Positions 10,423-17,929 of a DNA stretch of 17,929 nucleotides are shown here, one piece after another. Source of the DNA: a virus (taxonomy: Duplodnaviria > Heunggongvirae > Uroviricota > Caudoviricetes). The notes beneath the pieces were generated by a model. It saw only the letters and a list, made by a program, of their open reading frames with translations. It ran no database searches and had not been told where the DNA came from. The position numbers and the translations under genes were made by a program. Positions within the stretch are counted from its first letter, which is position 1. Every line of letters starts with the position of its first letter. The stretch spans positions 1-17,929 of the IMG/VR virus record IMGVR_UViG_2548876946_000015; one strand, given 5' to 3'.

Positions 10423-10455
10423 GCAAGCATACATCACAACAAAGGTGCTTGCATT
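10420..10455. repeat. Operator-like inverted repeat IR2 (AATGCAAGCAT ... TGCTTGCATT)
   Basis: Second copy of the 12-bp TAATGCAAGCAT at 10419-10430 (first copy at 10363-10374) with an inverted partner TGCTTGCAT at 10446-10454, ending 1 nt before the ATG at 10456. Confidence 0.45.
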
Positions 10456-11424
10456 ATGACTGAAAAGAAAAGTGGCGAAGGGAAAGCTAAGGGCGGGATC
10501 GCTCGCGCAAAGTCGCTGACTAAAGAGCAGCGTTCTGAAATAGCAAAGAAAGCAGCTGCTGCAAGATGGAAAAGTAAGATTCTCAGGGCAACTCATCGTG
10601 GTAACTTTTTAGATGATTTTGGCATTGACGCTGAATGTTATGTACTGGATGACGAGTCGAAAACTGTCGTTGTTACGAAAACTGGATTATCTCAGTTGCT
10701 AGGGATTGGTGAACATGCCAGGGATTTAGATCAACTGCTTGGCGCTCAGTATATGAGCAAATACCGAGATCTAGAATTGCAGCGAAAAATGGAAAATCCC
10801 TATAAATTTCAACTTACTTCGAAGTCTAAAACCGTTCATCAAGCGTTAGGTTATGACATTACAGCAATTGTTGATATTGGTAGGGCACTAATAGAAGCCA
10901 AAGATAATGACGATCTACCACAATCACGGTTAAAGGCAGCCGCCGCAGCACAGAGACTTATTAATGCCTCCGCTAAGGCGGGAATTAAGGGGGTTGCGTA
11001 TGCGCTTGCTGGTTATCGTCCAGAAGTTCAGGCTGTCATTGACGAGTTCAAAGCGTTTGTTCGTGAAGAGGCTCGTCAATATGAAAAGGAATTTCCAGAT
11101 GAGCTATACGAGGAGTGGTATCGACTGTACGGCCTGAATAGGCCAGAGAAAGGACGGCCTATTCGTTTTGGGCAGCTAACCAACATGCAGATATATACCC
11201 CGCTAGCAAAGAGCAAAGGTAAAATTCTTGAACAGATTCGAGCCAGCCGAGACGAGAACGGAAAACAATCTGATAAGTTGCATCTGTTCCTTTCTGAAAT
11301 TGGTGTCAAGGCTTTGCGTCAGCATATCGGTAAGCTTCTTGGTGTCGCAGCGATGAGTGAGACAAGAGAAGAATACGAAAAAGGAATAGAAAAGGTTTTC
11401 GGAAGAATGAAACCAGAAATCTAA
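10456..11424 (+). CDS. Hypothetical accessory (moron) protein, 322 aa; basic N-terminal segment; function unknown
   Basis: Start preferred at ATG 10456 (MTEKKSGEGKAKGGIARAKSLTKEQRSEIAKKAAAARW...) with AAAGG 8-9 nt upstream; the track's 10393 start lies inside the promoter/operator region. Lys/Ala-rich N-terminus followed by a segment (CYVLDDESKTVVVTKTGLSQLLGIGEHARDLDQLL) loosely reminiscent of KilA-N/Bro-N-type folds. Ends at a strong terminator. Confidence 0.6.
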   Translation: MTEKKSGEGKAKGGIARAKSLTKEQRSEIAKKAAAARWKSKILRATHRGNFLDDFGIDAECYVLDDESKTVVVTKTGLSQLLGIGEHARDLDQLLGAQYMSKYRDLELQRKMENPYKFQLTSKSKTVHQALGYDITAIVDIGRALIEAKDNDDLPQSRLKAAAAAQRLINASAKAGIKGVAYALAGYRPEVQAVIDEFKAFVREEARQYEKEFPDELYEEWYRLYGLNRPEKGRPIRFGQLTNMQIYTPLAKSKGKILEQIRASRDENGKQSDKLHLFLSEIGVKALRQHIGKLLGVAAMSETREEYEKGIEKVFGRMKPEI

Positions 11425-11699: not shown

Positions 11700-13940
11700 A
11701 TGACAGATTCAATAAATGCCAATGTTGTAGTGAGTATGCCTTCGCAACTCTTCACTATGGCGCGTTCTTTTAAAGCCGTAGCCAATGGTAAAATTTATAT
11801 CGGTAAAATTGACACTGACCCGGTAAATCCTGAAAACCAGATTCAGGTTTATGTGGAGAACGAAGATGGCTCTCACGTTCCTGTTTCTCAACCAATCATC
11901 ATTAACGCTGCTGGCTACCCTGTATATAACGGACAGATTGCTAAGTTCGTTACTGTACAAGGGCATTCTATGGCTGTTTATGATGCGTACGGTGCTCAGC
12001 AGTTCTATTTTTCGAATGTGCTGAAGTATGACCCTGACCAACTCAGGCAAGATCTTGCATCTCAAGGAGGTGTTAATCTGGTAAACGGAGCTATCTCACA
12101 GGAAGATCTTGTTTTGCAGTCGATCACAAAAATTCCAAGTTATGATAATTCTAACGTAGTCCAGGCGTGGCGCGATAGTGTTGCGACCTACGGGTATGTT
12201 TACTTCTCTAATCATTCAAAAAATCAGATGGTGTACACCGTACCGTCTACAGCTGCTAACGCTTCTTTCCTTGCGAACAGTAAAGTAATCATTGATAAAA
12301 ATGTCACCCTGAGATTCGACAGTGATCTGTACTCACTGTTTAAATCGTTGCAGTACGAGGGGGAGGGTACGTTTGAATTTACGCACCTGAACTTTAAAGC
12401 AACCGGTGGAGAAGTGGATTACCTGGCTAAGCAGGCCATCCTCAACCGAAATCCTATTCGCATGAAGCGAGTGGAATGGTCAGATTGTAAAGTTTATTCC
12501 ATAAATGGTGACACGTTCTTCTATGAAGGTGAAGTCACCATATCCTCAGATAGCGCAGCTATCTTCCCCTTAACTACTGACCGTACAACAGGCCTGTTCG
12601 CACCAATAGATATTGGAGAGCATATTTCTGCACATATTCGTATGGAGTCTCAGGCCGCCTCAGAAGTTGGGATTGTTCTGCGATGCTCTGGTGGTTGGAT
12701 GATGTTCTATGGGGCACCAGGTGCTACACAGTGGTCTTATAGACAGAAACCAATTGGTGGTCCAGTAGCAGAAGGAACTCCATTCCCGCTGCCAGGAGGT
12801 TTACTGTCGTACGCCCCGGGCAAAGCAACCGTTGGCGTATCACTGCAAGGTAAAAACTGGGCGCAGATAACGATGAATGGCGTTGGGATACGTTTGCCCT
12901 TTGATACTGCTGATGTAGGGGATGTATACGAAGTTGGGTTTGTTGCACTGACCACGGCATCTGGAGGTTCTGCGCGTGTAACTGGATTATGCAGCTACAC
13001 CTCTGATAATGGCGTGCACGGTAAGCCTCCACTTAATATCCTTATCCACGGTGATAGTACAGCTGAGGATTTCATTTCCGCGTTCAGCTCGTACATTCCG
13101 CAATTAATGGATGGAGCGAACGGCCACCGTTCATATAGCATTGTAAACAAGGCAGTTGCCGGACAGACAATGAGGCAACAGTTAGATCTCCTGAAGGCTC
13201 AGGGGCCGGGTGATGCTTACATCGTTATTATGGTTGCCGGAACTAACGAAGGGCAGGCAAACCAAAACGGCGATTATATGGCGGCACTGATAGATGAGTT
13301 TGTCTTATATTGCAATGGCCTTGGTCGTATCCCTGTTTGGGTTGAGCCGTGGATGTGGTATAGCCAGTCATTTATTGGAGGGGCTGGCCAGCCATCTTCT
13401 AACTACGACGGTGTCGCAGAGTTGCGAGAAGCTGGTAAACGCCAGATGATGAAATATGGCAATAACGTCATTTGTGTAACAACAACTCACCAGCTCCCGG
13501 CCCCATATCCAGAGTATTTCAATACGCAATACGACCCACTTCTGCGTGATGACATTCACCAAAGCCAGTTAGGGTATCGTCTGTATGCGGAAATTATCTG
13601 CTCTGCCATTATCGACTGGTGGTCGCGTGTTGATTACACGCCAAGAGCAGCTGTTCAATGGTGGGCTGGAACAAACGTAACAGTACAGGCACCGTCAAGT
13701 TTAACTGCCAATTCAATTAATATTAAACTGGCAGCCACTTCATTTGCGAATGGTAATACTGTTCTAACGCTGCCAAGGTGGTGTAGACCAACAGTAACAA
13801 AAAATGTCCCTGTACCGTTCACTGCTGATGGAATATCTTACGGTATGGCGATGGCAACAATAAGCGCATCAACCGGGTCGATAACAATTAATGGATCTAC
13901 TACAGCCTCACCAATATTTTACATTGATGCTTCCTGGTAG
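11700..13940 (+). CDS. Tailspike protein: P22-type N-terminal head-binding domain plus SGNH/GDSL esterase-type domain, 746 aa
   Basis: Start preferred at ATG 11700 ([12 protein letters not shown]...) with GGAG upstream; the track's 11679 start is a TTG. The N-terminal ~110 aa ([39 protein letters not shown]...[15 protein letters not shown]...NVLKYDPDQ) closely resemble the P22 tailspike head-binding domain as recalled. The C-terminal half has SGNH blocks: GDS at 13050-13058 ([14 protein letters not shown]), a Gly block (AVAGQT), GTNE ([11 protein letters not shown]) and DxxH at 13548-13559 ([10 protein letters not shown]). Confidence 0.85.
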
Positions 13941-13967
13941 AAAAAGGCCGCAATGCGGCCATCTTTT
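13941..13967. terminator. Bidirectional terminator between the convergent tailspike and SGNH genes
   Basis: AAAAA-GGCCGCA/TGCGGCC hairpin-ATCTTTT; A-tract on one side and T-tract on the other. Confidence 0.55.
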
Positions 13968-14661
13968 ACTTCACATGTTTATTAATCTCTCTCATCCAAA
14001 CGGCATAGCCATTTTTATTTAAATGCACTCCATCATCAAAGTACAATTCAGATTTTTTATCAGATAAAAAATCTGCAGGAACTTCTATTATATTGCAGTT
14101 AACTATGCGACTACATGTTCTATCAATAATAGAGTTAATCATGCTTATTCTTGAATTGACATGGTCTACGTCTTTTCTTGCCCCGCTTATGATTGGCAAA
14201 ACTTTTAATGCATAAATATTATCAACCTTTGATACACTCTTAAGCAGTTTGTCATAATCATCAAATATTTCCTCTTCGGTTTTCGCACCCATCGCATCGT
14301 TAACTCCACCTTCAATTATCGCAGCTTTATATCCAGACGCCCCATAATTTTCTGATAGAGTTAGGATCTGATGTATAGAGTATCCTCCGACCCCCATATT
14401 AACATATTTAAAGTTTAACCCATATGGTGACATTCCTTGTATGAGCGAGTCGCCATAAACCACAATGTCGCCGTCAGCTTGATTAGCATTCATTTTTTTA
14501 AAATCTAGCATCACAGCCTGAAAGTCGTTAACTTTTTTTTGAGATAAATAATTTCTAATTGAACGAACAGACAATACTATAATAACTATTGCAATCAGAA
14601 TAAACAGCATTGCCAAATATTTATTTGCTTGAGACTTTCTATTTGTTTGTTTTGACTTCAT
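13966..14661 (-). CDS. Membrane-anchored SGNH/GDSL-family hydrolase (esterase or acyl-transfer accessory domain), 231 aa
   Basis: ATG at 14661 with AAAGGA 7 nt upstream. One N-terminal TM helix (YLAMLFILIAIVIIVLSV). SGNH blocks I (VVYGDSLIQG), II (NMGVGGYS), III (EGGVNDA) and V (DDGVHLNKNGY). Very AT-rich. Confidence 0.8.
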   Translation of the reverse strand: MKSKQTNRKSQANKYLAMLFILIAIVIIVLSVRSIRNYLSQKKVNDFQAVMLDFKKMNANQADGDIVVYGDSLIQGMSPYGLNFKYVNMGVGGYSIHQILTLSENYGASGYKAAIIEGGVNDAMGAKTEEEIFDDYDKLLKSVSKVDNIYALKVLPIISGARKDVDHVNSRISMINSIIDRTCSRIVNCNIIEVPADFLSDKKSELYFDDGVHLNKNGYAVWMREINKHVK

Positions 14662-14745
14662 TGCATTTTCCTTTTAATAAGGTTTAAGGTTAAAAATATA
14701 TTTACGCTTCAAATCAACGAATTGAGAAAATTATTCAGCCAACCA

Positions 14746-15024
14746 CTAACTAGACTTGCAATCTAATCTTATATATGATCTGAGTAAGAGTGTAAAAATC
14801 CGCTTAATCCTTCTTAAGTAAAAATCGGAAAAAGAAAATTTACCGCTATTTAAATTTTTAAAAATAATACTTGAAATTAAAAGGCTAGATATTATGAAAA
14901 ATAAATCAAACCCATTGAACTCTCCAGAAAATGCGCTTGGGAAAGCGTGAAACATCACAACAGCGACTGCTCTTAAACCATCTATACCAGCTCTATACTT
15001 TATCATTTTTATTGTCCAATTCAT
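14746..15024 (-). pseudogene. Remnant of an acyltransferase-3 (AT3) gene: N-terminal ~90 codons only
   Basis: Translation MIKYRAGIDGLRAVAVVMFHAFP...FNGFDLFFIISSLLISSIIFKNLNSGKFSFSDFYLRRIKRIF matches the conserved N-terminal signature of AT3/OafA/OatA-type acyltransferases (R...H motif, VDxFFxISGxLI, FYxRRxxRI). The ORF stops after 92 codons, 85 bp before the SGNH gene, and is in the same reading frame as the SGNH ORF. Confidence 0.55.
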
Positions 15025-15313
15025 CTACAGTGAAAGAGCAAAGAAAAACAATGCAATATATCTCATGTGACTACTCCTAAAATAAATTTAATGATAATAA
15101 CATCATGAGGATAAATTTAGAAGTGGGAAGATCGGAAATGCTCATTGAGCAGCAGAAAAAATATCACTGACTCTGTATACACATACAGTATTTTTTGTCT
15201 GTTATTGATCATTGGATACTTGAGCCTAGCGTAAAAGTAATATGAATGATACAGTATGCTTATATAATTGATTTTTGCTCTCGGTGTAAGTTCGGATTGT
15301 ATTATATAACCAG

Positions 15314-15339
15314 AAAATATCCCCAGAACTAAGCTGGGG
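15314..15339 (-). terminator. Terminator after the AT3 acyltransferase gene (minus strand)
   Basis: Minus strand reads CCCCAG-CTTAGTT-CTGGGG followed by ATATTTT, immediately after the stop at 15354-15356. Confidence 0.5.
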
Positions 15340-15353
15340 ATTCATGTCATATG

Positions 15354-16394
15354 TCAGCTTGCTAGTGCGATCTTCCTAAGCCTGTGACCTATATTTATAG
15401 ATGGTTTTTCAATTACCTTATAAGAAATAGTTGCTAGTGCGATCGTAGCTAATAGGTATAAAACAAAAATAATAAAATTAAAATCTGTGTCCATGTCTAT
15501 ACTGACAGATACAATCTCTAAAAAGAATGGGTGAATCAAGTATACAGAGTAACTTATCGATCCCAGGAAAACCAATAATCCTACATTCAATTTTACCCGT
15601 GTAGTGAGCAATAGCGTCAATACTATGCCTGTAAGATAGCTAGCAATATAGGAGGAAGCATTTTCCCCATGCCCATAGTCTTTATTGTAGGACATTAAGC
15701 AAATCGGAGCAATCGCCACTAGGAATGTTATTAAAAATACAATGCACATATTTCTTTCTGATCTCGATGCAATCCCAATGCTCACTGAACGCCATAAGCT
15801 ACCAAAGAACATTAATGACATAGCTAGCGGTATTGCCACAGGAACTTTTTTATCAAGAACGAATCTCACGTATGAGAAAGCAAGAGCGGTTGCAATAAGT
15901 CCTATAGAAATTAAAAATAAAGAAACCTTACTCTTTAATAAATTTACTTTGAAAAGAAACGCACAGGAAGCATAGAAGAACAACTCAATTATTAGCGTCC
16001 AATAAACACCAAACATATCTGGAGATCTCAGTAAAGATTGAAGCATGGTAATATTAGACAACAGAGTTCTTATATCAAGTGGTCTATGAGTTACAAACAA
16101 AAAAGTAAAGGCCGCCAGAAATACTGAAAACCAGTAAGCGGGATATAGTCTAAAAAACCTTGATATAATGAACCCGGATATCGCTCTTTTCCCTTCCTTT
16201 AGGCTGTAAGGTATTACCATGCCACTTAACACAAAGAAGCAAACAACACCAACCTGACCAAAGTTAACATGCTTAAATAAAAAACTGTTATGCAATGGTG
16301 TTCGCTCTATGAAATGTGCACATGCAACCATCAGGGCTGCAAGTCCACGCAAAGAGTCTAGGAATTCTAGACGATTTCCATTTCTTATAGACAT
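15354..16394 (-). CDS. Acyltransferase family 3 (AT3) integral membrane O-acyltransferase, 346 aa; candidate O-antigen acetyltransferase for lysogenic conversion
   Basis: ATG at 16394. N-terminal LDSLRGLAALMVACAHF (R...H catalytic signature), FGQVGVVCFFVLSGMVI and about ten hydrophobic helices. AT-rich. Located between tailspike and integrase, where the Sf6 oac-type gene lies. Confidence 0.8.
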   Translation of the reverse strand: MSIRNGNRLEFLDSLRGLAALMVACAHFIERTPLHNSFLFKHVNFGQVGVVCFFVLSGMVIPYSLKEGKRAISGFIISRFFRLYPAYWFSVFLAAFTFLFVTHRPLDIRTLLSNITMLQSLLRSPDMFGVYWTLIIELFFYASCAFLFKVNLLKSKVSLFLISIGLIATALAFSYVRFVLDKKVPVAIPLAMSLMFFGSLWRSVSIGIASRSERNMCIVFLITFLVAIAPICLMSYNKDYGHGENASSYIASYLTGIVLTLLLTTRVKLNVGLLVFLGSISYSVYLIHPFFLEIVSVSIDMDTDFNFIIFVLYLLATIALATISYKVIEKPSINIGHRLRKIALAS

Positions 16395-16771: not shown

Positions 16772-17929
16772 TCACTTCACCTTTTCATCAAGCCAATCCG
16801 CCCACCACTGCATCATTTCTCTGCGCTTATCGAGATACTGAGCGTGGTTGTAAATCCCGCGCACAGATCCGCCGTTGGCATGTGCCAGTTGCACTTCAAT
16901 AGCGTCAGCAGGCCATTCGTGCTCGTTCATAATCGTGCTGAATTCATGCCTGAATCCGTGACCGCTTTCCAGACCTTCATAGCCGATTTGTTTGATCACA
17001 AGCAGTACAGCGTTCTCGCAAATTGGCTTCTTCTTATCGTTGCGCCCGGCAAAAACAAACTCTGACACTGGTTTAGTGATTGAGCTTAGCGTAGTGAGAA
17101 GTTCAATCACCTGGTCTGACATAGGAACCACATGAATTTTGCGTCCCTTCATCACACTGGCGTCGATGGTGATAATCCTGTTTTCAAAATCGACGTTCTT
17201 CCATAGCATGGAACGAAGCTCTTTCGTTCTTAGGGCTGTGTAGCGTAAAACTTTGGTCGCAATGAGCGATACGATACTTCCTGAAAATGTTGCCAGTGCT
17301 TTGTTGAATGCCGGGATCTGGTCTGCAGGAAGAAACGGGAAGTTCTTCTTGCGGTATCCCTTCATGGCGTCAGCAAGGTCAGGTGCCGGGTTATATTTAG
17401 CCCTACCAGTGACAATAGCGTAACGGAAAACCTCGCCGCATCTTCTGCGGGCTTTATTTGCTCGCTCCATTGCACCGCGATCTTCAAATCTGCGGATTAC
17501 TTCCAGTAGTTGCATCGGCTCAATATCCTGAATTTCAAGACCGCCGATGATGGGTAAAATGTCGTCATCAAACATTTTTGCAAGTTCATTTGCATAGCCT
17601 ACTGACCAGACTTGCTTCTTGTGCTCGTACCATTCCTTGTAAATGGCGCTAAAGGAATTGTTGTTAGACGAAGCCTTTTTCGCCTTTACCGGATCGATGC
17701 CAACCGAGATGTCTTTCCTCGCAGTCCATGCCTTATCCCTTGCTTCCTGCAAAGTCATAAGCGGATATTTTCCGATGGTCAGGATTTTCTCCTTACCGTC
17801 AATCTTGTAGCGAAGCTGCCATACCTTTTTCCCTGATACAGGGACATAAAGGTACAGGCCATTACCATCGAGAAGGCGGTATGGTTTTTCTTTCGGCTTT
17901 GCTGCTTCAATCTGCTTAACGGTGAGCAT
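16772..17929 (-). CDS. int: Tyrosine recombinase / phage integrase, 385 aa
   Basis: ATG is the last three bases of the window. N-terminus MLTVKQIEAAKPKEKPYRLLDGNGLYLYV is typical of the P4-type integrase arm-binding domain. C-terminal catalytic signature HGFRHEF ... RGIYNHAQY (HxxR and Tyr). Confidence 0.85.
   Translation of the reverse strand: MLTVKQIEAAKPKEKPYRLLDGNGLYLYVPVSGKKVWQLRYKIDGKEKILTIGKYPLMTLQEARDKAWTARKDISVGIDPVKAKKASSNNNSFSAIYKEWYEHKKQVWSVGYANELAKMFDDDILPIIGGLEIQDIEPMQLLEVIRRFEDRGAMERANKARRRCGEVFRYAIVTGRAKYNPAPDLADAMKGYRKKNFPFLPADQIPAFNKALATFSGSIVSLIATKVLRYTALRTKELRSMLWKNVDFENRIITIDASVMKGRKIHVVPMSDQVIELLTTLSSITKPVSEFVFAGRNDKKKPICENAVLLVIKQIGYEGLESGHGFRHEFSTIMNEHEWPADAIEVQLAHANGGSVRGIYNHAQYLDKRREMMQWWADWLDEKVK

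Follow-up and report, generated by a model that had tools for sequence, protein, structure and literature searches.

The block between the tailspike and integrase genes of a P22-like prophage from an E. coli O88 host may serve lysogenic conversion as a modular cassette for editing the O-acetylation of the host's O88 O-antigen, in which a membrane-anchored SGNH protein (TM-SGNH) would erase acetyl groups and a stand-alone AT3 acyltransferase would write them. We put this reading forward tentatively, as coming close to an even chance. The window, i.e., the whole stretch of DNA analysed (17,929 nt), carries the following features:

11700-13940, + strand: tailspike, 746 aa; P22 head-binding domain followed by a predicted beta-sandwich/SGNH esterase receptor-binding part
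11700-12041, + strand: P22-type head-binding (particle-attachment) domain of the tailspike (Pfam PF09008, E=2.5e-65)
12042-13940, + strand: receptor-binding part of the tailspike, predicted beta-sandwich, SGNH esterase, and C-terminal beta-sandwich
13946-13960: GC-rich hairpin, GGCCGCAATGCGGCC, each strand having T-runs; putative bidirectional terminator where the tailspike and SGNH genes converge
13966-14661, - strand: TM-SGNH, 231 aa, predicted membrane-anchored periplasmic SGNH protein, N-in/C-out
14709-15006, - strand: relic of an AT3-SGNH (OafA-type) gene, the deletion remnant of a second acyltransferase gene
15319-15341, - strand: terminator-like hairpin immediately 3' of the AT3 stop codon
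15319-16483, - strand: mobile cassette of the AT3 gene together with its promoter-like site and terminator, upstream of the relic
15354-16394, - strand: AT3-only acyltransferase, 346 aa, intact, putative O-antigen O-acetyltransferase
16772-17929, - strand: IntS-type tyrosine integrase (Pfam), prophage end at the argW tRNA site

The SGNH gene, the relic, and the AT3 gene all lie on the strand opposite to the tailspike, and the tailspike-to-integrase block forms a low-GC island (31-36% GC versus 47-48% for the phage), with tRNA-Arg, yfdC, and mlaA next to the integrase according to the RefSeq annotation. The initial annotation had placed three genes for acyl decoration within 5 kb (11700-16394), and all three are present at exactly these coordinates; the AT3-SGNH relic at 14709-15006 (-) is a fourth element that it overlooked. 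The position between tailspike and integrase, beside the former, is the usual place of O-antigen conversion genes (PMC10408124), in agreement with the lysogen-side role suggested earlier. Since the synteny of the cassette genes is conserved across many independent prophage and viral contigs, their grouping is not due to chance.

Tailspike and restriction to O88

The N-terminus of the tailspike shares 94% nucleotide identity with that of the HK620 tailspike and matches the N-domains of the Sf6 and P22 tailspikes in the PDB. Conserved motifs together with a structural model show the remainder to be a predicted SGNH receptor-binding protein of the carbohydrate-esterase type, which takes the place of a glycanase. 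The GDS (S453, codon 13056-13058), G488, GTN (N516), and D617-x-x-H620 motifs were invariant in an alignment of 32 homologues with 31-93% identity; the Pfam match of the window's own protein was sub-threshold (Lipase_GDSL_2, 20.4 bits against a cut-off of 32.9), and remoter members of the family passed the PF13472 threshold. The AlphaFold (AF2) model of the receptor-binding part reached a pLDDT of 85, its top Foldseek matches being the CE2 esterases 2WAA/2WAB/2WAO and the acetyl-xylan esterase 7TOG, so that the earlier description of an esterase-type tailspike is upheld. This receptor-binding family occurs on N-terminal adaptors of four or more kinds. All 12 of the E. coli genomes carrying the receptor-binding part are O88, and all 12 are among the 25 genomes, out of 5,426 E. 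coli, with the O88 wzy. The O88 gene cluster is annotated with two acetyl/acyltransferase genes, and on the strength of this annotation the native O-antigen is probably O-acetylated.

The SGNH protein, the acyltransferase gene, and the relic

TM-SGNH matched Pfam PF13472 (E=9e-14) as well as PF00657, and was predicted to possess a single N-terminal hydrophobic helix (approximately residues 17-35), preceded by a basic N-terminus containing five K/R and no D/E. In the family alignment, S72 (codon 14446-14448), G90/G92/G93, N121, D210, H213, and the Cys183/Cys189 pair were invariant, in keeping with the TM-anchored stand-alone SGNH hydrolase that had been proposed. The AF2 model (pLDDT 88) was structurally nearest to PAF-AH-type esterases and sialate O-acetylesterases, the class that also gave the best profile match, at only 16-19% identity. 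TM-SGNH belongs to PHROG 14008, labelled 'unknown function', and by sequence its family is a conserved, uncharacterised, phage-borne one of about 220-245 aa; among the 150 best-scoring relatives from 1.84 billion representatives, 149 were short stand-alone proteins (94-322 aa, mostly 200-270 aa), the only exception being the fusion fragment P0109. It retains Gly in block II and Asn in block III, the canonical oxyanion-hole residues, both of which OafA/OafB lack (PMC7448272), and the block II Gly is replaced in PatB and S. pneumoniae OatA (PMC12148441). The protein thus looks autonomous and hydrolase-like, with the qualification that SGNH motifs cannot discriminate hydrolysis from transfer. Two other assignments were rejected: the AT3-attached PF19040 type, given the PF13472-type match with hydrolase-type oxyanion residues, and a broken-off OafA domain, given its membership of a distinct, conserved phage family. 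The hairpin at 13946-13960 coincides with a recombination breakpoint between cassettes, an identical tailspike being followed there by a different SGNH allele.

The AT3 gene covers positions 2-325 of the 326 profile positions of PF01757 (E=2e-30) and matches PHROG 3333, 'O-acetyltransferase' (E=5e-56). It carries the R16-X10-H27, FFxxSG, and R79xxR82 motifs and has a dN/dS of 0.06-0.12, which confirms the intact AT3 O-acyltransferase of the initial annotation, and the GG-F/Y-xGV-D motif of AT3-SGNH proteins was absent from it. All its homologues are AT3-only proteins of about 350 aa, some of which are situated behind tail genes without any SGNH (loci L031, L033, L049). The cassette as a block shares 83% nucleotide identity with L032:601-1765, the homology stopping exactly at the 15319-15341 hairpin, and a promoter-like TTGATC-16-TAAAAT is located upstream of the gene at 16457-16430. 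Taken together, the promoter-like site, the terminator, the mobility of the cassette, and the SGNH-free relatives make this AT3 look autonomous.

The relic derives from an OafA-type AT3-SGNH gene of about 660 aa, from which about 1.67 kb was lost by deletion at an ATTT microhomology. On either side of the gap lies one blastn block: the 5' part, 15006 to about 14797, and the final ~90 bp, 14800 to about 14709. The remnant matches Pfam AT3 positions 2-81 and shares 74% amino acid identity with the N-terminus of the L013 AT3-SGNH; the frame is lost at the junction, internal stops are present, R-X10-H is broken by a 3-aa deletion, and GG->GE and SG->SS changes have occurred. TM-SGNH was originally located behind a complete AT3-SGNH gene whose remnant is still in place. 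Flanking the AT3 cassette, 16510-16434 corresponds to sequence found upstream of the AT3-SGNH gene of L013, and we infer that the stand-alone AT3 replaced an AT3-SGNH at this locus.

Eraser and writer, or parts of one enzyme

Under the cassette reading, the tailspike would bind and hydrolyse O-acetyl groups of the O-antigen for adsorption. In the lysogen, TM-SGNH alone would act as a periplasmic O-acetyl esterase, stripping acetyl groups needed by its own tailspike or by rival phages and so leading to superinfection exclusion, while the AT3 would independently add an acetyl group at another position; the eraser would be the constant component, with writers exchanged beside it. E. coli 4s without O-acetylation is fully resistant to phage G7C, which has an esterase tailspike (PMC10743462), so an eraser would be expected to protect the lysogen. 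Precedents exist for a writer-plus-eraser operon (PatA/PatB/Ape1; PMC12148441) and for phage-driven loss of O-acetylation (epsilon15; PMC9558356).

TM-SGNH occurs by itself, next to an AT3-SGNH gene that is complete, 11 bp downstream of an AT3-only gene, or as part of a fusion with an AT3. The last two arrangements speak for another reading, a realistic though somewhat doubtful one, in which a two-component O-acetyltransferase would have TM-SGNH as its periplasmic transfer domain; the TM helix of TM-SGNH would take the part that TMH11 has in fused AT3-SGNH proteins, and the donor in the window would be the neighbouring stand-alone AT3. An unknown partner of stand-alone AT3 proteins has been explicitly postulated in the field (PMC9558356, PMC9833829). 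In L041, an AT3-only gene is followed after 11 bp by TM-SGNH, with an RBS inside the AT3 3' end, and the two are orthologous (61% and 52% amino acid identity) to the halves of a single 595-aa in-frame fusion (L003, L023-26, L052, P0109) in which the AT3 C-terminus leads into the N-terminal anchor of the SGNH and the topology is correct. This Rosetta-stone pattern, with the fusion present in at least two phage backbones and both halves at a dN/dS of 0.11-0.15, is what would be expected of components of a single enzyme rather than of antagonists. The AT3 lineage of L041 and the fusions was seen only linked to TM-SGNH, and it differs from that of the window's AT3. The window's own SGNH subtype keeps an intact AT3 domain upstream in four of four arrangements, from three different AT3 lineages; in L032, a small secreted SGNH comes after an AT3 orthologous to that of the window (89%), and in a polysaccharide biosynthesis cluster (L057) a distant anchored SGNH (GDSLIQGM-type) overlaps an AT3-only gene and is accompanied by a second AT3-SGNH gene pair. 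However, in most arrangements no AT3 occurs within 5-6 kb of TM-SGNH (L004, L005, L008, L028, L029, L039/40, L006/7, L035-38), which stands alone in three of its four subtypes, and a transfer role would be redundant beside complete AT3-SGNH genes, which already include such a domain (L012-14, L009-11). The periplasmic-loop motif (GG-F/Y-xGV-D) specific to AT3 domains that hand over to an SGNH is missing from the AT3s involved, the oxyanion hole of TM-SGNH is of the canonical hydrolase type and the protein itself does not belong to PF19040, the window's AT3 family occurs in SGNH-free loci, and in the window the two genes are separated by 690 bp containing a terminator and a pseudogene. The split OafA-type system of the initial annotation gains comparative support from the L041 pair and the fusions, but not for the window's AT3, which forms a separate cassette ending in a terminator of its own: the relic was the original neighbour of TM-SGNH, and both genes occur unpartnered elsewhere. 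Of that interpretation, the esterase-type tailspike, the lysogen-side placement, and the non-relic state of the genes stand.

It is unlikely, but worth weighing, that TM-SGNH acts on a target other than the O-antigen (enterobacterial common antigen, colanic acid, another glycan, or a lipid) or trans-acetylates between positions, its location merely reflecting the usual moron slot. The gene does occur beside non-esterase, AV101-like tailspikes (L004, L028/29, L039/40) and, in Aeromonas and N15-like prophages, at sites with no tailspike nearby; the proteins closest to it in structure cleave acetyl esters of lipids and sialic acids; and the same tailspike exists in loci without any cassette. Nevertheless, 11 or more of 13 arrangements place TM-SGNH tail-to-tail with a tailspike gene, 12-33 bp apart, within the conversion slot, and the gene co-occurs with O-antigen-type AT3 genes. 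It is highly improbable that both genes are decaying leftovers of earlier conversion modules that are no longer expressed: one acyltransferase gene of the block is indeed a relic and no promoter consensus was found directly upstream of TM-SGNH, but both ORFs are intact, all catalytic residues are invariant, and both proteins are identical in two other complete E. coli genomes with the cassette, three viral contigs, and two metagenome contigs. Purifying selection (dN/dS 0.08-0.16 for TM-SGNH, near 0.1 for its family, and 0.06-0.16 for the two genes over 11-50% protein divergence) indicates that they are not relics.

Comparison with known systems

As in G7C gp63.1 (PDB 4QNL) and gp55 of Pectobacterium phage PP99, the window's tailspike is predicted to be of the SGNH deacetylase type instead of a glycan depolymerase, with an O-acetylated O-antigen as the presumed receptor (PMC10743462, PMC6989608). 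In contrast to the virulent G7C and PP99, our phage is temperate with a single tailspike type; its esterase part shows no sequence similarity to that of gp63.1, of which profiles matched only the N-terminal adaptor, and is modelled as a CE2-like beta-sandwich plus SGNH on a P22 head-binding domain. The window's AT3 resembles the Sf6 Oac class in being stand-alone, with about 10 TM helices and the R-X10-H, FFxxSG, and RxxR motifs, and in lying, within a P22-like prophage, between the tailspike and integrase genes (PMC9558356). Nonetheless, it is remote from Sf6-type Oac (best isolated-phage match 35% identity, from an Erwinia phage) and, unlike it, lies beside an esterase-type tailspike and a separate SGNH.

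OafA/OafB (GtrC-BTP1) represent the class from which the relic derives, and their architecture (AT3, one extra TM helix, periplasmic SGNH) is shared by the fusion of the sister phages. Compared with them, TM-SGNH is of the PF13472 and not the PF19040 type, the AT3 lacks AT3-SGNH-specific motifs, and the window's genes form separate transcription units. A system of AT3 plus separate SGNH has not been described (PMC9558356, PMC9833829, PMC12148441). PatA/PatB/Ape1 and other MBOAT plus SGNH systems likewise combine a membrane acyl-translocase with a separate anchored periplasmic SGNH, and the former encodes writer and SGNH eraser together, as proposed here (PMC12148441); they differ in using an MBOAT, with peptidoglycan as the target of PatA/PatB/Ape1, whereas the window has an AT3, a prophage carrier, and presumably the O-antigen as target. 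TM-SGNH has the block II G-x-G-G in common with PAF acetylhydrolase Ib alpha and bacterial sialate O-acetylesterase, and is distinguished from this class by its N-terminal anchor, conserved Cys pair, and phage context. Finally, epsilon15 of Salmonella group E1 is a temperate phage that removes O-acetylation in serotype conversion, proposedly by inhibiting the host AT3 with no esterase involved (PMC9558356), whereas in the window this step would fall to TM-SGNH.

Prophage setting and O88 host

The window comprises the late genes and the right end of a P22-like (Lederbergvirus-type) prophage. The late genes encode the scaffold, P22 coat, gp4, gp10, gp14-like (DUF2824), gp7, and gp20 proteins and are followed by the tailspike gene, a low-GC block, and the IntS integrase gene. 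Among isolated phages, close relatives were found for the tailspike N-terminal domain only. The initial annotation had recognized an esterase-type tailspike, a membrane-anchored SGNH hydrolase, and an intact AT3 O-acyltransferase; all three genes were recovered at the same positions, their span being delimited exactly by the ATG codons of the tailspike (11700) and AT3 (16394) genes. A fourth element, overlooked at that stage, lies between the SGNH and AT3 genes and is the remnant of an AT3-SGNH gene. The features are as follows:

11700-13940, plus strand: tailspike, 746 aa, with its receptor-binding part at 12042-13940
13966-14661, minus strand: predicted membrane-anchored periplasmic SGNH protein (TM-SGNH), 231 aa
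14709-15006, minus strand: relic of an AT3-SGNH gene
15354-16394, minus strand: AT3-only acyltransferase, 346 aa

This block has the placement of a conversion module in P22-like phages, i.e., it occupies the tailspike-integrase interval on the strand opposite the late genes and has an atypical GC content. Searches of NCBIfam and PADLOC yielded no matches for any of the proteins, and a promoter scan of the window gave match counts at background level; our functional statements on the locus are based on sequence, predicted structure, and synteny. Elsewhere in the window, the place of the P22 immI region (ant/arc/mnt) is occupied by 9657-11424, which encodes a multi-pass membrane protein without family match (9657-10430, minus strand; annotated 212 aa) and a P63C-domain protein at about 10456-11424; neither had a match in PADLOC.

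O-antigen O-acetylation sets serotype, vaccine epitopes, and phage sensitivity. The O88 wzy gene (at least 99%) was present in 25 of 5,426 complete genomes, and all 12 genomes bearing the tailspike receptor-binding part fell within these 25 (chance expectation about 4e-30, assuming independent genomes; three represent one clone). Because all 12 carriers have O88 wzy, the tailspike is O88-specific, which provides a host and a substrate for testing the locus. The O88 cluster (L060, NZ_CP148579.1, 1004000-1025500) contains rfbBAC, an oxidoreductase gene, manBC, and two cytoplasmic-type acetyl/acyltransferase genes. In the L060 strain, ISEc1 adjoins galF. Considering the gene content of the cluster and the structure of the O88 antigen, which we take to contain 6-deoxytalose, the native antigen is probably O-acetylated.

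The tailspike and the acyltransferase genes

The 746-aa tailspike showed a strong Pfam match to the P22 head-binding domain, while its SGNH score was 20.4 bits, under the threshold of 32.9; more distant members of the family passed the PF13472 threshold. Across 32 sequences with identity down to 31%, G451-D-S453, G488, G514-T-N516, and D617-x-x-H620 were invariant. The best Foldseek matches of the AlphaFold model (pLDDT 85) were CE2 carbohydrate esterases and an acetyl-xylan esterase, all composed of a beta-sandwich plus an SGNH domain. The domain thus displays blocks I, II, III, and V, the Ser-Asp-His triad, and the alpha/beta/alpha fold of the SGNH/GDSL superfamily, and the invariant blocks and CE2-like model bear out the earlier prediction of an esterase-type tailspike. 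A paralogous relationship between the tailspike SGNH domain and TM-SGNH was ruled out, as no BLAST similarity was found between them. The receptor-binding part is mobile and occurs with at least four kinds of N-terminal adaptor (PF09008, PF18668, PF03906, PF12571). In the compared proteins P0029-P0108, the adaptors included the P22 head-binding, TSP1/Gp66 N-terminal, T7 tail-fibre N-terminal, and tail-collar domains. The part was found in taxa as diverse as Escherichia, Enterobacter, and Shewanella, and an Aeromonas phage encodes a remote homologue (28% identity).

The window AT3 is covered over its full length by PF01757, has about 10 TM helices, and carries R/K-X10-H in TMH1 (here R-X10-H), an FFxISG-like motif (FFxxSG), and RxxR in loop 2-3, in line with a stand-alone AT3 as defined in PMC7448272, where R-X10-H, FFxxSG, and RxxR are essential in OafA and Oac. 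The gene is intact, as initially annotated, and has a dN/dS of 0.06-0.12. All of its relatives were AT3-only proteins of about 350 aa. Close relatives lie behind tail-fibre or tailspike genes with no SGNH gene (L031, 81%; L033, 56%; L049, 53%), and in L032 an 89% orthologue is located upstream of a signal-peptide SGNH protein (227 aa) that is 26-32% identical to TM-SGNH. The latter locus (L032:690-6048) holds four acyl-editing genes in about 5.4 kb, including a convergent AT3-SGNH (639 aa) and a TAT-signal SGNH (378 aa). The GG-F/Y-xGV-D/P/V motif of the TMH1-2 periplasmic loop, specific to and partly essential for SGNH-fused AT3 domains (Pearson et al., PMC7448272), was absent from the window AT3 and from the fusion-type AT3 described below, whose longer loop carries F/Y-GQ-x-GV-x and lacks the Asp. 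The motif (GG-F/Y-xGV-D) was present in the AT3-SGNH proteins of L013, L009, and L032 (639 aa), and a degraded copy was found in the relic.

The relic appears as a 92-codon ORF (14746-15024; orthologous start at 15006) whose product shares 74% identity with residues 1-78 of the 660-aa AT3-SGNH protein (PF01757 + PF19040) of L012-L014. In those loci the 660-aa gene is located 55 bp upstream of a TM-SGNH gene whose product is 76% identical to that of the window, and the receptor-binding part of the tailspike is 87% identical. By blastn, window 15014-14795 corresponds to the first 220 bp and start region of the 660-aa gene, and the sequence from 14800 onwards corresponds to its last ~90 bp, followed by the spacer, SGNH, and tailspike; therefore, a deletion of about 1.67 kb occurred at an ATTT microhomology. 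The reading frame is no longer kept, stop codons interrupt the 3' piece, and at the N-terminus a 3-residue deletion breaks R-X10-H, accompanied by GG->GE and SG->SS changes. The AT3 cassette (16483-15319), which opens with a promoter-like site and closes with a hairpin terminator, aligns en bloc with L032 at 83% identity. The sequence just outside it, at 16510-16434, matches the stretch that precedes the AT3-SGNH gene of L013. Judging from these alignments, the intact AT3 is a cassette separate from the relic. In the likeliest history, an ancestral AT3-SGNH gene and TM-SGNH stood behind the tailspike; the AT3 cassette was later acquired upstream of them, and the older acyltransferase gene degenerated.

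The TM-SGNH family and its genomic arrangements

TM-SGNH passed the PF13472 threshold and displays the four conserved blocks and catalytic triad of the SGNH/GDSL superfamily. Its basic N-terminus is followed by a single hydrophobic helix, and the Ser72/Asp210/His213 triad, Gly90, Asn121, and the Cys183/Cys189 pair are invariant among 26 relatives, features that fit a predicted N-in, C-out anchored periplasmic enzyme. PF19040, the OafA/OafB-type AT3-attached SGNH family, did not match TM-SGNH at E<=0.01 and matched the neighbouring AT3-SGNH genes of L013 and L009. Profile comparison gave matches to PAF-AH-type/sialate O-acetylesterases (E 1e-10 to 1e-5) and to OatA/PatB (0.01-0.03). A search of 5.8 billion proteins detected 28 relatives, almost all of 212-245 aa. 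Among the best 150 of 1,540 matches in 1.84 billion representatives, 149 were short stand-alone proteins (94-322 aa, mostly 200-270), the exception being a fragment of an AT3::TM-SGNH fusion. The window's subtype was present in 6 of 5,426 complete E. coli genomes, and a profile scan of species-representative genomes for TM-SGNH found nothing. The family corresponds to PHROG 14008, labelled "unknown function". It is under purifying selection, with dN/dS values mostly of 0.08-0.16 and a maximum of 0.29 across three subtypes in free and fused forms.

About 13 distinct arrangements of the gene were distinguished, at least 11 of them tail-to-tail with a tailspike gene and 12-33 bp from its 3' end.

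Arrangements of the TM-SGNH gene in the compared loci
(a) Alone, with no AT3 within 5-6 kb: L004, L028, and L029 (Enterobacter and others); L005 and L008; L039/40; Aeromonas L006/7; N15-like telomere phages L035-38
(b) Behind a complete AT3-SGNH (PF19040) gene: L012-14 (660 aa); L009-11/L030/L055 (611 aa; 41% identical to the 660-aa protein)
(c) With the relic and a stand-alone AT3: window type
(d) After an AT3-only gene (377 aa) ending 11 bp before the TM-SGNH start: L041
(e) As a 595-aa AT3::TM-SGNH fusion: L003 (E. coli SRY149, P22-like); L023-26/L052 (different phage backbone); P0109

In L041, GGAGG lies within the AT3 3' end, and the next gene encodes a tailspike with a 62%-identical C-terminus. 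The fusion joins the natural C-terminus of an orthologue (61%) of the L041 AT3 to the entire TM-SGNH from residue 4, anchor included, and both halves have a dN/dS of 0.11-0.15; L027 bears a broken copy. The 595-aa protein of SRY149 had suggested that TM-SGNH might be what remains of the C-terminal end of a broken OafA-like gene. This was rejected because the relic is a different, PF19040-type gene upstream of an already separate SGNH, and because the L003 fusion joins an AT3-only C-terminus to a complete anchored SGNH. In the N15-like linear-plasmid prophages (L035-L038), a TM-SGNH subtype is situated between primase (PriCT_2) and telomere resolvase (ResT/TelK) genes, with neither a tailspike nor an AT3 gene nearby.

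Three kinds of tailspike adjoin TM-SGNH, namely the window's type, an unrelated second SGNH-tailspike architecture (L005, L008, L009), and AV101-like tailspikes without SGNH signal (L004, L028/29, L039/40). The same esterase tailspike as in the window also occurs without any cassette in L016-L019; these loci and the AV101-like neighbours led us to reject an exclusive tie of TM-SGNH to esterase tailspikes. Two of these loci, L016 and L017 (E. coli GPEC1240 and A30; tailspike 96-97%), are degraded prophages at the lambda attachment region (ybhB-bio site) with IS66 insertions, truncated late genes, and no conversion cassette. Moreover, L013 and L023 share identical receptor-binding parts (dS 0.016) and carry different cassettes (SGNH dS 0.9; one free, one AT3-fused), which places a recombination breakpoint at the shared bidirectional terminator (window 13946-13960). 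The cassette-free tailspikes and this exchange show that the link between tailspike and TM-SGNH is facultative and modular.

Two more distant settings were observed. The isolated Lederbergvirus Escherichia phage vB_EcoP-683R2 (L015, ON470594, 1275-5182) has a small SGNH gene tail-to-tail with its tailspike gene (178 aa as annotated, 28% identical to TM-SGNH), followed by a DUF1796 papain-like protein before the integrase. In the metagenome contigs L057 (823-7207) and L058, a polysaccharide biosynthesis cluster with GT4 and Wzy-like genes contains an anchored SGNH gene with the family's GDSLIQGM motif, which overlaps an AT3-only gene by 8 nt, and a second AT3-only gene that abuts a 295-aa SGNH on the other strand; these are therefore two pairs of AT3 and separate SGNH genes outside any phage.

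Proposed roles of TM-SGNH and comparison with known systems

The analyses establish an O88-tied, esterase-type virion tailspike, an intact AT3 and an intact periplasmic SGNH of a separate family, both under selection, and a dead AT3-SGNH gene. The tailspike would use O-acetyl groups as its receptor and remove them, like G7C gp63.1, and the genes behind it would be expressed in the lysogen and alter O-antigen acetylation. For TM-SGNH itself, we lean, at somewhat short of even chances, towards a function as an O-acetyl eraser. This role explains every context of the gene with no host factor required: it covers the solitary occurrence of TM-SGNH in most arrangements, its position beside acyltransferases that already own a transfer domain, and its canonical Gly/Asn oxyanion hole. 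OafA/OafB lack both the Gly of block II and the Asn of block III (PMC7448272), and the Gly is replaced in PatB and S. pneumoniae OatA (PMC12148441). The stronger profile matches to PAF-AH/sialate O-acetylesterases than to OatA/PatB likewise fit a predicted deacetylase. Precedents include PatA/PatB/Ape1 (PMC12148441) and epsilon15, in which O-acetylation is abolished on conversion (PMC9558356).

The eraser role remains close to a second, tentatively held possibility to which we assign a lower probability, namely that TM-SGNH supplies stand-alone AT3 proteins with the separate periplasmic partner that has long been postulated for them, the two forming a natural two-component O-acetyltransferase. 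Such a system would occur split, tightly coupled, or fused, would be carried by prophages next to their tailspikes as an interchangeable module for specificity, and might draw on a host AT3 where the phage has none. Such a partnership accounts for the AT3::TM-SGNH fusion and for the 11-bp coupling in L041. The split (L041) and fused (L003, L023-26, P0109) forms constitute a Rosetta-stone pair with a dN/dS of 0.1-0.15, for an AT3 lineage only 26% identical to the window AT3. Furthermore, the AT3 domain is always upstream of the window's SGNH subtype across three AT3 lineages, and the distant GDSLIQGM-type anchored SGNH of L057 overlaps an AT3-only gene in a glycan biosynthesis cluster. However, co-occurrence is not obligate: TM-SGNH lacks an AT3 in at least eight arrangements, and the window's AT3 family lacks an SGNH in three. 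The case is weaker for the window pair than for L041 and L003 because 690 bp, including a terminator and a pseudogene, separate its genes and because this AT3 family functions elsewhere without SGNH. The split OafA-type system proposed in the initial annotation stands only in part: the fused and split pairs of another AT3 lineage lend it support, but not for the AT3 gene of the window itself. Action on another substrate or trans-acetylation seems unlikely, and decay of the SGNH and AT3 genes into relics is highly improbable, since both are intact and under purifying selection.

Should the eraser role hold, TM-SGNH would be the first phage-encoded O-antigen deacetylase serving lysogenic conversion and an elegant defence against phages with esterase tailspikes. 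A possible requirement of stand-alone AT3 proteins for an SGNH-like partner is explicitly an open question in the field (PMC9558356, PMC9833829), and the split, 11-bp, and fused loci offer a concrete, genetically tractable pair for this question. A conserved anchored periplasmic SGNH family lying tail-to-tail with tailspikes in many enterobacterial prophages also goes beyond routine annotation.

When compared to G7C gp63.1-type esterase tailspikes, the present tailspike differs in its catalytic part: the gp63.1 (4QNL) esterase region gave no match by phmmer or profile, the N-terminal adaptor alone being matched (E=0.004), and 4QNL was absent from the best 50 Foldseek matches of the model. Its O88 restriction and the acetyltransferase genes of the O88 cluster are consistent with a deacetylase tailspike of that type; host mutants without O-acetylation show full resistance to G7C (PMC10743462). 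The AT3-attached SGNH domain of OafA/OafB has an atypical oxyanion hole (criterion from PMC7448272), with block II Gly and block III Asn not conserved, whereas both are invariant in TM-SGNH. In OafA/OafB the SGNH domain is fused to AT3 via an 11th TM helix, whereas the window TM-SGNH is a separate gene; a fusion of that style is present in the related loci L003 and L023-26, where the SGNH is of the PF13472 type. Recent reviews describe two architectures only, MBOAT with a separate SGNH and fused AT3-SGNH (PMC9558356, PMC9833829, PMC12148441), and our literature search found no description of an esterase tailspike combined with AT3 and TM-SGNH. Already known were tailspikes of the esterase type, converting acetyltransferases that consist of AT3 only (Sf6 Oac), and AT3-SGNH enzymes (OafA, OafB). 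To judge from the literature searched, the TM-SGNH family, its usual place next to tailspike genes, and its occurrence split from, coupled to, or fused with AT3-only proteins add a new variation on a familiar theme, the editing of O-antigen acetylation by phages.
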